DNA of 32,715 nt from a plasmid, in NCBI RefSeq assembly GCF_053078305.1, contig NZ_CP166878.1, one strand, 5' to 3'. The position numbers and the translations under genes are program-made. The number at the start of each line of letters is the position of its first letter. Position 1 is the stretch's first letter. Shown here piece by piece: positions 2,988 to 32,689 of the stretch. Under the pieces are notes generated by a model that worked only from the letters and a program-made list of their open reading frames with translations, was not told the DNA's origin and searched no databases.

Positions 2988-3000
2988 ACATTTAGCATTA

Positions 3001-3080
3001 TATGCTTATATGCTTATATGCTTATATGCTTATATGCTTATATGCTTATATGCTTATATGCTTATATGCTTATATGCTTA
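3001..3080. repeat. Perfect tandem array, 10 x 8 bp (TATGCTTA)
   Basis: Counted directly: ten uninterrupted TATGCTTA units. Degenerate units flank it (TAGCATTA at 2993-3000 and TATCATTG at 3081-3088). It starts 14 bp after the virB11 stop codon. Confidence 0.95.
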
Positions 3081-17644: not shown

Positions 17645-17727
17645 TGCAACAACCCCCTGATATCTCTCTTAGAGCTTTTGCGGGGCCAAAGAAGATAATC
17701 AGGGGGTCCAAAGCAGGCTTTTGCCTG
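17645..17727 (-). ncRNA. Predicted CopA/Inc-type antisense RNA controlling repA
   Basis: A minus-strand promoter reads TTGTAT (17761-17756), a 16-nt spacer, then TATAAT (17739-17734). The transcript would form a small hairpin (caggc/gcctg, 17713-17726). It would then form a long bulged hairpin closed by CCCCCTGAT/ATCAGGGGG (17653-17706), followed by the tail UUGUUGCAUU. It lies 55-130 nt upstream of repA, as in IncFII replicons. Confidence 0.55.
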
Positions 17728-17780
17728 TAAAGGATTATAGCAAATGCATTTTTCAATACAAGACTACTGCCCGGCAATAA

Positions 17781-30460: not shown

Positions 30461-30676
30461 ATGAGCGATAAGATCCAAGAAATCACACAAAAAATTGAGA
30501 AATTGCAGATAAAATTGAGCAAAATTGAAGAGGAAAAAAACAAGATACAATCAAAGCTGGTTAAGTTAGAAGAAGAGAAAAAATCAATACAGCGCAAGCT
30601 GATTCTACAGGAGAAAAGAGAAGAGCTTGAAATGCTTTTAGACAAAGAAAGTTTTGATATTTTATTCAATAAATGA
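30461..30676 (+). CDS. Small coiled-coil protein
   Basis: The ORF is 71 aa from the ATG at 30461. It has heptad-like K/E/L/I repeats (KIEKLQIKLSKIEEEKNKIQSKLVKLEEEKKSIQRKL). It runs divergently from the AT-rich operon. Confidence 0.5.
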   Translation: MSDKIQEITQKIEKLQIKLSKIEEEKNKIQSKLVKLEEEKKSIQRKLILQEKREELEMLLDKESFDILFNK

Positions 30677-30692
30677 GCATGATTTTTGGGAG

Positions 30693-30721
30693 AATTGCCC
30701 TCTGATTATCAGAGGGCAATT
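30693..30721 (+). terminator. Terminator-like hairpin after the coiled-coil gene
   Basis: An 11-bp perfect stem (aattgccctct/agagggcaatt) has a 7-nt loop. The following T run is short. Confidence 0.5.
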
Positions 30722-30942
30722 TGTCATTGGTAGTGCCTATTACCGTTAGTTATGATCACGAAAAACGCGATGATTGTTCATTACAATGCCCTATCGTTAG
30801 ACAGGACATGTGAGCGTTTTATCAACAACGTAAGCAGAATTTTTTGCAGAAATGATCCTGCATCAATACTGAAAATCGTTGTTGTCTTACATGTGTTAAA
30901 CATGATTTTTTAGTCAATTTCATAACAAAATATACCTACGTT

Positions 30943-31883
30943 TTTTTGGGAAGTCCTCTTACTGAACCAACAGAAAGAGGACGAAAAAGAGGAAACATGA
31001 ATGTTTCCTCTGCCATGTTACTACCGTGAATTTTCAGCTACTTATCTGTACTGGTTGCCTCCAGTATTTTCAGATTCATCTACAGACTTCGGCTATATCG
31101 TCTGTAGATTTTTGCGCCTACTCGTTCACTCTCCCACACTCAGGAATGTAATTTCGGTGCCACCCGAAATTTTCCAGAGTGCTTCCCACGTTAGCTGATC
31201 TTGTCGGGATAACCCGCCACTGGCTCAGACAAACTACTAGGCTACGCCTTACCATTTCTGGCTTTCAGGGGGCCGAGATTCCAAAGCACCTCCCTTACTC
31301 ATAATTTGCCGTCAACACCATAGCCAGACACTTAAGTCATGGCTGGTTATCACTTACCCGAATGCGACCTCTTCGGACGCAATTACAGGCTTGAGCTTTA
31401 CAGCGATCTGCAAAGGTTGCCCCTCACAGTACCGACGTTTCCAGGTTTCCCCTCAACGCCCTGACACCTCACGATGCCCTCAGCAGCCCACCTGTCGGGA
31501 ATATGTTGTACCTTCTCAAGCACCCCATATTCGGGATTTTCACCCGTTCAAGATCAACAGGGATCACGTAGTCACCTACGTTCCCGTTTCCGTGTCGCCC
31601 AGTCTCACGCTTTGGCGTGGATTGGGTCGGACAGGGGAGTTTCACCCCCGAACGCCCTTCGTAGCCGTACCAGCCCAATTACAGGCATACGGCTTCGGCA
31701 GTAACTGTTATCAGGGTTGGCAGTCCTGATAACTCACCTTCGTTTGGCAGACGAAGGCTTTTGGCTTTTTTCGTCTTTCGACTTCCCAAAAATGCGTCGA
31801 GAGTTGGCAGCTCGCAACGCACGTTTTGTTACGTAAGCGATGCTTGATAGTCCGGCGCCCGAAAGGCTCGCATCGAGCCGGAC
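30943..31883 (-). ncRNA. ORF-less group II intron-like ribozyme with domain order D5-D6-D1-D2-D3
   Basis: All coordinates are plus-strand and the RNA is read on the minus strand.
- Domain V is AGCCGUAUGCCUGUAAUUGGGCUGGUACGGCU (31694-31663). It has the AGC triad, a 2-nt bulge and a 5-bp upper stem, and compares with the consensus GAGCCGUAUGCGAUGAAAGUCGCACGUACGGUUC.
- A domain VI-like hairpin with a GAAA loop and a bulged A (at 31627) spans 31657-31624.
- Downstream lies domain I-like sequence, including GGGUGAAAAUCCCGAA.
- A J2/3-domain III-like motif, UAGUAGUUUGUCUGAG, lies at about 31240-31225.
- The 13-nt termini UUUUUGGGAAGUC (31792-31780) and GACUUCCCAAAAA (30955-30943) are complementary.
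- A promoter-like sequence reads TTGCGC (31918-31913), a 17-nt spacer, then TATTAT (31895-31890).
- No reverse-transcriptase ORF is present. Confidence 0.55.
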
Positions 31884-31984
31884 ATCAGTATAATATTTAA
31901 CCTGTAAGCGCAGCGCAAGGAATCTCTTTATAAGGTATTCCCATATGTTGATTTCTTTTATGTAGCGGTTACTACATAGCTTTT

Positions 31985-32689
31985 ATGAGGATTTCGATGA
32001 TTTACCGTTTTAAAACCGATTTTATGCGTCAGATAGCCATGCTGTTTTCGCTGGGATATACAAGGTGGTTTGGTGGCGAAATTCCTCTAAACCCTCACTA
32101 TAAATTCGTGTCACTAAAAGCACGTTTTGATGAACTCTACGCTATCAATGCAACAGCACAACAACGTTTCAGGAGAAGAGAAAAAGGAGTAGCAAACTGC
32201 AAATTTCTTGTCTGGTTTGATGAAAAAAATGCAACTCTTTTATGGGTGTTACTTGCAACAGAAGGGGATGTATACAATGAAGAGAAATTTTATGATGGTA
32301 TGAATAAAAAAACTCGTATTTCTGTTTCAGGTTATGAACTAAAAACAGTTCCACATCGAGGTAGAAAACCTAGCGTTTCATGGGCTATGAAGAAAGAAAC
32401 TTATGAAAAGTGGCATGCGGATATAAAGAAGTCGATAAGAACAAGAAATGATGAGAATATAGAAAAATTATGGTATTCACTCAGGAGGGTGGCAGGGTTT
32501 AGTGAGTTACGTAGACAGGTATTTAAGTTACAGAGATATGCAATGACAGAGTGGAAACGCTCCAGAAGAGGTGAATATCCTTATGAGAAGATTTTTGTTG
32601 GATGGTTAGGACGATTTAAACAAAGTGAAACCATCACAGATGAAGAGCTTTTGTTAATATCGAAGTCAAAAAAAGCTGATATCTTTTAG
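31985..32689 (+). CDS. Hypothetical basic protein
   Basis: The 234-aa ORF contains several early Met codons, so the start is uncertain. It is divergent from the ribozyme-like locus. I recognise no family. Confidence 0.5.
   Translation: MRISMIYRFKTDFMRQIAMLFSLGYTRWFGGEIPLNPHYKFVSLKARFDELYAINATAQQRFRRREKGVANCKFLVWFDEKNATLLWVLLATEGDVYNEEKFYDGMNKKTRISVSGYELKTVPHRGRKPSVSWAMKKETYEKWHADIKKSIRTRNDENIEKLWYSLRRVAGFSELRRQVFKLQRYAMTEWKRSRRGEYPYEKIFVGWLGRFKQSETITDEELLLISKSKKADIF

Follow-up and report, generated by a model that had tools for sequence, protein, structure and literature searches.

Circularly permuted (CP) group II ribozymes are the closest described relatives of the element presented here. 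According to the parts of Roth et al. (2021, iScience; PMC8637638) drawn on in this work, to which all mentions of that paper below refer, these RNAs are ~900 nt long and occur on chromosomes and plasmids. Their domains (D) follow the order D5-D6-D1-D2-D3-D4, and the reversed splice sites, with 15–86 nt of linker between them, free a small circle. Specific to the class are two 5′ stem-loops, P1 and P2, and three pseudoknots, which join the P2 loop with the D2 loop, the P1 loop with the 3′ end, and the D3 loop with D1; the first of these is supported by covariation in the published model. Here we analyzed a stretch of 32,715 nt from an Escherichia coli plasmid (RefSeq assembly GCF_053078305.1, contig NZ_CP166878.1), called the window below. 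Its minus strand carries, at ~31885-30985, an RNA of ~900 nt that is most likely a CP group II ribozyme with three hairpins as its leader, whose GCCA loops make loop-loop RNA contacts. We give this reading a probability of roughly 80%.

The window has ten plus-strand copies of the heptamer TTGGCAG. Three of these (31717-31723, 31744-31750 and 31804-31810) lie within 115 nt, each inside the loop of a hairpin, and read CUGCCAA in the minus-strand RNA. In RNA order, the hairpins are:

31794-31820, minus strand: leader hairpin P0, the 5′-most; GCG-U-CGAG / AG-CUGCCAA, in the RNA ...GCGUUGCGAG CUGCCAA CUCUCGACGC; loop heptamer 31810-31804
31737-31757, minus strand: leader hairpin P1; CCUUCGU / CUGCCAA / ACGAAGG, from the fold and RNAalifold; loop 31750-31744; equated with the published P1
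31707-31733, minus strand: leader hairpin P2; GUUAUCAGG / A-CUGCCAA-C / CCUGAUAAC; loop heptamer 31723-31717; equated with the published P2

On the plus strand, 31707-31733 reads gttatcagg / g-ttggcag-t / cctgataac, with a stem of 9 bp and a loop of 9 nt, and 31737-31757 reads ccttcgt / ttggcag / acgaagg, with a stem of 7 bp and a loop of exactly 7 nt. The hairpin at 31794-31820 (gcg-t-cgag / ag-ttggcag / ctcg-caa-cgc) is less regular, having a 4-bp inner and a 3-bp outer stem around an internal loop. The minus-strand RNA of 31660-31890 folded with all three hairpins present and CUGCCAA unpaired (minimum free energy (MFE) −85.8 kcal/mol, z = −4.0). When the whole ~900-nt RNA was folded, the mean unpaired probabilities of the three loops were 0.64, 0.95 and 0.99.

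The repetition of a heptamer three times within 115 nt was not significant on its own, with 14 such heptamers in the real window and at least one in 189 of 300 first-order Markov simulations. The repeat count was therefore rejected as a statistic and a hairpin-loop condition was added. With each copy required to sit in a hairpin loop closed by at least four Watson-Crick pairs, only TTGGCAG was left in the window, and none of 1000 simulated windows had such a heptamer. The original prediction had proposed three hairpins with the same loop heptamer and unrelated stems, located on a functional minus strand, in a leader just 5′ of a domain V-like element of a ribozyme. The sequence, the minus-strand fold and the simulations support the hairpins, the stems are indeed unrelated by reading, and both the strand and the position hold, with D5 directly downstream at 31694-31663 of the minus strand.

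The stretch 30985-31885 is G + C-rich and poor in open reading frames (ORFs). From 5′ to 3′, the minus-strand RNA has the leader hairpins, D5, D6, the 3′ splice site, a 20-nt linker, the 5′ splice site, D1, D2, D3, a D4-like hairpin and a 3′ tail. Following the leader hairpins, the features are:

31696-31705, minus strand: 5′ strand of the closing helix, GUUACUGCCG, directly 5′ of D5; pairs with 31026-31017 in the full-length MFE structure
31663-31694, minus strand: domain 5, AGCCGUAUGCCUGUAAUUGGGCUGGUACGGCU, with the AGC triad, an 8-bp lower stem, a UG bulge and a 4-bp upper stem
31624-31657, minus strand: domain 6, with a bulged candidate branch-point A at 31627; GGGCG...CG-A-CCC pairing, from the alignment; assigned by analogy with the published model
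31601-31620, minus strand: predicted linker, from the 3′ splice site (after AAU, U31621) to the 5′ splice site (before G31600), based on the published motifs NU and GGGCG
31183-31600, minus strand: 5′ splice-site motif GGGCGACACGGAAACGGG, kept in 8 aligned homologues and the published alignment, then domain 1 and junctions (not dissected)
31136-31182, minus strand: domain 2 hairpin, between the anchors CUAACGUGGGAA and GGGAGAG as in the published alignment; its terminal loop GUGGCA (31163-31158) is a candidate partner of the leader loops
31078-31109, minus strand: domain 3 hairpin with the loop GAUAUAGCCGAA (31099-31088), from sequence and fold
31044-31075, minus strand: D4-like hairpin AUCUG...CUGG / AGGCAA / CCAG...CAGAU, loop 31060-31055, from the fold
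31017-31026, minus strand: 3′ strand of the closing helix, CGGUAGUAAC, from the full-length MFE structure and homologues
31010-31016, minus strand: 3′ tail AUGGCAG, directly after the closing helix, from the sequence
30988-31011, minus strand: terminator-like hairpin and U run, the probable 3′ end of the RNA, from a pattern match

Sequence and predicted structure place this RNA in the CP group II class. D5 (31694-31663) and D6 (~31657-31624) precede D1 to D4, with GGGCG at 31600 followed by ~580 nt that match the D1-D3 core of 45 homologues. The D5 of the window (AGCCGUAU...UG-GUACGGCU) has the AGC triad, five pairs, a UG bulge and a terminal loop, in agreement with the published description of an AGC triad, five pairs and then a UN bulge (PMC8637638), and it showed compensatory changes at 8 of 11 pairs (RNAalifold, 29 homologues). 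The bulged A of D6, the NU and GGGCG splice sites and the short linker agree with the class by analogy and are predicted features. The D3 loop AUAGCC (31096-31091) is complementary to GGCUAU in D1 (31325-31320), and Halomonas keeps this pairing as AUGGUC/GGCCAU, among the few sequences inspected. There was no reverse-transcriptase ORF within the RNA, which is overlapped only by short spurious ORFs.

By analogy with the published splicing reaction, the predicted circular product would be 20 nt, CCACGCCAAAGCGUGAGACU. The linker forms a 5-bp hairpin with a CAAA loop, and its size is near the short end of the published range. Pairing between exon-binding site 1 and intron-binding site 1 (EBS1-IBS1) would call for a loop in D1 that complements the linker end GAGACU; a non-systematic search for one gave no convincing candidate. 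Using a copy of Rfam 15, no family reached the gathering threshold for this RNA in a search of the whole window, and none, group II models included, appeared at E-values up to 10 in 30600-32100.

To collect homologues, the 5′ splice-site motif was searched for in a single genome of each species, and an nhmmer profile was then applied. The core profile recovered 45 homologous loci from many phyla and matched the window at 31695-31114 (E = 5e-169). Loop, polarity and pairing counts were made on 30 representatives of these. On seven related leaders, RNAalifold predicted the two hairpins nearest to D5; 15 of their 16 pairs showed compensatory changes, and GCCA was invariant. With MAFFT and RNAalifold on 29 diverse leaders only D5 was recovered, because indels misalign the P2 arms; the narrower set of seven succeeded. 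The hairpin nearest to D5 had a GCCA or ACCA loop in 29 of the 30 representatives, and in most of them it was preceded by one to four further GCCA-loop hairpins. The E. coli 3-kb RepL plasmids had three GCCA-loop hairpins, at −107, −52 and −26 from D5 compared with −113, −53 and −26 in the window, with different stems. At the place of P0, the enterobacterial relatives L131 and L132 had CAGCCAA and UAGCCGC, respectively, and L130 had none.

The published alignment has P2 just 5′ of D5, as ACAGU UUGCCAA ACUGU, and P1 before it (PMC8637638). By analogy with it, the two hairpins nearest to D5 are the published P2 and P1, and P0 is an extra copy of the same module. Many homologues, among them the loci L022, L048, L052, L071, L081, L100 and L105, had three to five tail hairpins with UUGGCRG loops and two to five leader hairpins with YNGCCAA loops, exceeding the published P1/P2 pair.

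The loop motifs were strongly polar along the RNA. Occurrences in the 30 representatives, and the percentage located in loops of hairpins of at least 5 bp, were:

Leader, GCCA: 87 occurrences, 59% in loops
Leader, UGGC: 12 occurrences, 8% in loops
D2 through tail, UGGC: 125 occurrences, 64% in loops
D2 through tail, GCCA: 26 occurrences, 8% in loops
Flanking DNA of the same loci (background), either motif: 11–14% in loops

In the window, all three candidate partners of the leader loops lie in the other half of the RNA. The D2 loop GUGGCA (31163-31158), with an unpaired probability of 1.00, can form 5 bp with CUGCCAA (UGGCA/UGCCA; duplex −7.3 kcal/mol), the complementarity published for the P2 and D2 loops. 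The D4-like loop AGGCAA (31060-31055), likewise with an unpaired probability of 1.00, can form 4 bp (GGCA/UGCC; −6.7 kcal/mol). The tail UGGCAG (31015-31010) can form 6 bp with CUGCCA of any leader loop (−10.3 kcal/mol), which agrees with the published pairing of P1 and the 3′ end and is not assignable to P1 rather than to P0 or P2.

These partners have equivalents in homologues. The D2 terminal loop, between the anchors AACGYGGGAA and GGGAG, was nearly always G/U-UGGCA, and the D4-like loop was UUGGCA, UGGCA, GUGGCAA or GUGGCU in relatives. At the tail position there was RRGGCAGG in L130 and L131, and a hairpin with a UGGCA loop in Halomonas and Azotobacter. UUGGCRG loops also topped additional hairpins in the 3′ region of homologues, four or five at most. 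A conserved GUGGCGG at ~31219 was rejected as a partner, its conservation pattern (GGCG) not tracking the leader loops.

The 4-bp core between the P2 and D2 loops paired in all 30 distinct sequences. In the Burkholderia/Ralstonia lineage a G-C pair was replaced by A-U (CUACCAA with CUGGUAA), and the first flanking pair was UA in 14 sequences, AU in three and CG in two. The covariation score exceeded that of all 500 shuffles. A permutation test, which needs no assignment of partners, counted the extra core-flanking pairs of each leader loop with the best 3′ loop of the same RNA. Flanking complementarity was greater within an RNA than when the 3′ loop sets were permuted among RNAs, the real value being reached by 1 of 5000 permutations with Watson-Crick pairs only and by 67 of 5000 with G-U allowed. 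For example, L071 had GCGCCAA/UUGGCGC and CCGCCA/UGGCGG, L032 had CGCCAG/CUGGCG, and L048 had UUGCCAA/UUGGCAA. The homologues show the polarity of the motifs and also covariation, which was seen in the stems, the closing helix and the positions flanking the GCCA/UGGC core.

The prediction of variable stems presenting a constrained loop is borne out by the seven related leaders, with a smaller constrained unit than proposed. This unit is the tetranucleotide GCCA with one to three flanking bases; a match of all seven bases in all three loops is peculiar to the present E. coli copy. The original prediction also had the loop bind a specific ligand, either a protein or an RNA tertiary contact. The RNA contact is the supported reading, because GCCA loops in the leader face UGGC loops in D2 through the tail, the stems covary, and complementarity beyond the core is greater within an RNA than between RNAs; motif polarity, covariation and the permutation test all argue for it. 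A protein ligand, which could coexist with the RNA contact, found no support.

Several observations weigh against loop-loop pairing of this kind. The loops were extracted by anchoring on the motif, and core pairs were thereby favored by construction. The first P2-D2 flanking position was unpaired in 11 of the 30 sequences, and sliding the partner by −3 columns gave the same percentage paired, though with zero double changes; for these two reasons the P2-D2 pair count is supportive and not decisive. In E. coli the D4-like loop gives only 4 bp, and some homologues lack the third hairpin, enterobacterial relatives included. Since the three E. coli loops are identical, their sequence gives no assignment of loop to partner. 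An assignment of each loop to one partner via relatives with unequal loops was tried and rejected, as the answers conflict: Thiothrix pointed to P1-D2 and P2-D4, L131 to P1-D4, L132 to P0-D4 and Acinetobacter to P2-D2. With the published model as a guide, P2 would pair with D2 and P1 with the 3′ end, and the third hairpin would be left for the D4-like loop. We infer that such pairings form in this E. coli RNA, each loop with a partner of its own, and that they have a stapling role, the latter taken from the published deletion of P2 in a Thermus ribozyme.

In the full-length MFE structure, the closing helix is formed by the ten bases 5′ of D5 (31705-31696) and by 31026-31017. Equivalents were found in ~20 of the 30 representatives, where the best partner of the 11-mer lies 4–8 nt after a conserved GAAAG and the sequences differ. 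Leader and tail exit at the same end of this helix, which lies between D3 and D5 as the domain 4 stem does, and therefore the permutation break would lie in the domain 4 loop.

In the proposed mechanism, each leader loop would show (Y)NGCCA(A), complementary to UGGC(R) in the other half of the molecule; the candidate partners there are GUGGCA in the D2 terminal loop, AGGCAA in the D4-like loop and AUGGCAG in the 3′ tail. The stems would be free to drift, because a stem need only present its loop. The closing helix would bring leader and tail out side by side, and the loop-loop and loop-tail GCCA/UGGC pairings would act as staples that, ahead of splicing, keep D5-D6, the catalytic module, on its D1-D4 scaffold. 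The staples would still hold after splicing, when the halves are joined by just the 2′-5′ branch, or by nothing after hydrolysis. In Thermus, deletion of P2 kills the activity of the ribozyme at 20 mM Mg2+, and 100 mM Mg2+ restores it (PMC8637638). The polarity is swapped in this ribozyme, with P2 GUGGCA facing CUGCCAC in D2, and P1 UUGGCG facing CGCCAA at the 3′ end (PMC8637638). By extension from these deletion experiments, RNA-RNA staples are the best-supported reading of the E. coli loops as well. A 2026 preprint on a Comamonas ribozyme describes P1-D6 as a catalytic module that comes off D1-D4 once hydrolysis has taken place and docks there again, a situation in which non-covalent tethers would help.

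Divergent from the ribozyme lies the gene of a neighboring protein:

31985-32689, plus strand: acpG, gene of a 234-aa protein, with a profile match to AcpG

AcpG was described as a protein of ~260 aa, divergently encoded and without detectable homology; no ORF of an intron-encoded protein was described near CP group II RNAs, and some genomes were without acpG (PMC8637638). We found homologues of the 234-aa ORF divergently upstream of the ribozyme in ~30 of the 45 loci. A profile of these syntenic ORFs matched Thermus TTHC007 (AcpG, from the published data file) with E = 3e-16. A BLASTP comparison of the 234-aa ORF with Thermus AcpG was rejected as proof, being near non-significant (E = 0.02), and the profile was required. 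The 234-aa protein belonged to no Pfam or NCBIfam family, and Foldseek, Pfam and PDB sequence searches with AcpG gave no significant match; a YxDD motif was sought in AcpG and none was found. The AlphaFold2 model of AcpG, from an alignment of 78 sequences, had a predicted local distance difference test (pLDDT) score of 93.6 and a predicted template modeling (pTM) score of 0.88, and an earlier model from seven sequences gave the same list. On this modeling, a structural link between AcpG and group II maturases is a tentative lead and not a result; if confirmed, it would answer why CP group II ribozymes have no intron-encoded protein.

The motif TTTTATG is present three times (31956, 31981 and 32020, plus strand) around the acpG start, in the divergent promoter region of acpG and the ribozyme, and may be there by chance in an A + T-rich sequence. 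In the E. coli plasmid L003 (6831-9817) and in L132, a related contig (3194-4252), the genes downstream of acpG and on its strand are those of a large hypothetical protein and/or an ATPase of the type II secretion, type IV pilus or type IV secretion (T2SS/T4P/T4SS) family, and after these come toxin-antitoxin genes (ccdAB or relB/parE).

The loops could instead be binding sites for a protein, most likely AcpG, with GCCA(A) displayed in the way that domain 4A anchors the maturase in canonical group II introns. In these introns the high-affinity site of the maturase is at the domain 4 position, which is where leader and tail emerge from the closing helix here, and acpG is divergently adjacent both in the window and in the two-thirds or so of loci mentioned above. 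A protein site does not predict complementary RNA partners with matching polarity and covariation, however, and GCCA-loop hairpins are also present where acpG is not: the E. coli 3-kb plasmids lack the gene and have the three hairpins, and several other loci with no acpG nearby have such hairpins too. Together with the absence of significant AcpG matches in the searches above, this makes protein sites an unlikely explanation of the loops. A protein could also bind kissing complexes alongside the RNA contacts, and the two readings are not exclusive. In a bolder version, the leader and the 3′ hairpins would rebuild the open domain 4, the GCCA/UGGC kissing platform would be the docking site of AcpG, and AcpG would be a catalytically dead, trans-encoded relic of a group II intron reverse transcriptase/maturase. 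We consider this version doubtful, to the same degree as protein sites in general. If true, CP group II ribozymes would work as ribonucleoproteins that have a maturase of their own, and the number of protein or RNA partners recruited would be set by the repeats of the identical loop.

Loop-loop contacts could also be wholly or partly intermolecular, with D5-D6 docking on the D1-D4 of another copy, or with dimers or chains being formed. The three leader loops and the candidate partners are interchangeable in sequence and nothing in the sequence enforces an intramolecular registry; many homologues have two to five UUGGCRG-loop tail hairpins and two to five leader hairpins, and the Comamonas preprint proposes docking on non-self scaffolds. 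On the other side, the published P2-deletion result was obtained in cis, and pairing within the molecule is favored because the closing helix sets the leader and tail of the same RNA side by side, so that a mainly intermolecular arrangement seems less probable still than protein sites. Least probable, and by a long way, is that the hairpins are incidental and that a plasmid protein recognizes the heptamers in duplex DNA, as iteron-like or operator sites, or that the plus-strand hairpins act as terminators. In each of the 20 E. coli genomes with the element it lies on a plasmid, one CP group II copy described by Roth et al. lies near a plasmid origin (PMC8637638), and the plus-strand hairpin 31737-31757 followed by CTTTTGGCTTTTTT fits a terminator pattern. 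Against DNA sites stand the strict orientation on the RNA strand (GCCA in the leader, UGGC in the tail), a placement in loops at five times the background, the covarying stems, and a plasmid replication control region that is 13 kb away (PK-repBA, 17651-17778). As to terminators, matches in the region were not above those in shuffles (2 found, 1.6 expected), and the T run is not conserved among homologues. The intrinsic-terminator pattern of the middle hairpin extends over 31737-31770 of the plus strand and, judged by its sequence, could stop antisense transcription into the ribozyme gene.

The window is from an E. coli plasmid of ~30 kb with ten near-identical PLSDB records. In E. coli, the ribozyme element was found in 20 of 5426 complete genomes, unannotated in all 20. 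Its core was present at 65–76% identity on small plasmids of Halomonas, Azotobacter, Thiothrix, Paraphotobacterium, Paraburkholderia, Ralstonia and Acinetobacter. Between 31026 and 31724 it was 96% identical to L001 and L002, the E. coli 3-kb RepL plasmids. Similarity to these two ended inside the P2 loop and at the 3′ strand of the closing helix; beyond these points the leader and tail sequences differ and the hairpin plan is kept, a sequence pattern that suggests modular exchange of the ribozyme core or of the ends. In the Halomonas plasmid CP098531.1 (L004), a coding sequence annotated as "hypothetical protein" (1224-2048) covers the ribozyme, and is probably a misannotated G + C-rich non-coding RNA.

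Elsewhere in the window, the Rfam PK-repBA pseudoknot (86 bits) marked an IncFII-type replication control region, and TCGCTGG is present three times just downstream of it (17900, 17913 and 17926), with a period of 13 nt. The octamer TTATATGC is found in three tandem copies at 2998-3021. A sigma-54 promoter and NF-I-like TTGGC sites were also considered and were rejected upon inspection of the spacing.

Kissing hairpins are known from other systems. In ColE1 RNA I/RNA II and in retroviral dimerization loops, every loop differs in sequence and pairs with an antisense transcript or with a second copy of the genome. Similar to these are the short hairpins within ~110 nt and the loops of 6–7 nt that would nucleate pairing with complementary loops. 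They differ in that the partners here are in the same transcript, 550–800 nt downstream, and that the loops share one sequence. A ColE1-like RNA I/RNA II origin was considered owing to the three stem-loops in ~110 nt and the sharing with 3-kb plasmids. It was rejected on three grounds: RNAI and related Rfam models do not match the region, what the plasmids share is the core of the ribozyme, and replication of the small plasmids uses RepL. Domain 4 differs here from domain 4/4A of canonical group II introns: it is open and gives the 5′ and 3′ ends, it has no ORF, its arms would be held by loop-loop pairings, and binding of AcpG is putative.

The locus agrees best with the CP group II RNAs of Roth et al. 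The leader hairpins are like P1 and P2 in their position 5′ of D5, their variable stems, and the complementarity of the P2 loop (UUGCCAA) to the D2 loop and of the P1 loop to the 3′ end; also shared are the divergent upstream acpG and the plasmid location. There was no Escherichia sequence in the published data files (PMC8637638). The RNA class is known from the published account, and new are the E. coli host and the one extra copy of the leader hairpin. With E. coli, a CP group II ribozyme is now placed in a genetically tractable host, where it lies on small and mid-sized plasmids, and genetics becomes feasible for the class. The window differs from the published RNAs in having three leader hairpins and not two, all with an identical heptamer, and three candidate partners (D2 loop, D4-like loop and 3′ tail). 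Many homologues have extra GCCA-loop and UGGC-loop hairpins outside the published boundaries. In the construct Cte 2 of Roth et al., judged from its primers, the 5′ and 3′ extensions termed presumably extraneous hold one such pair, GAUCGCCAAAC and CUUGGCGGAU. What appears to go beyond the published description, as far as it was drawn on here, is thus the number and uniformity of the modules and their extension outside those boundaries. This wider scheme matters for minimal constructs, structure determination and circular-RNA engineering with these ribozymes; the structures published so far are of an RNA truncated at its 3′ end. Compared with the published model, the P1 and P2 pseudoknots appear to be part of a larger, repetitive arrangement, a polar array of leader GCCA loops and D2/tail UGGC loops around a closing helix.

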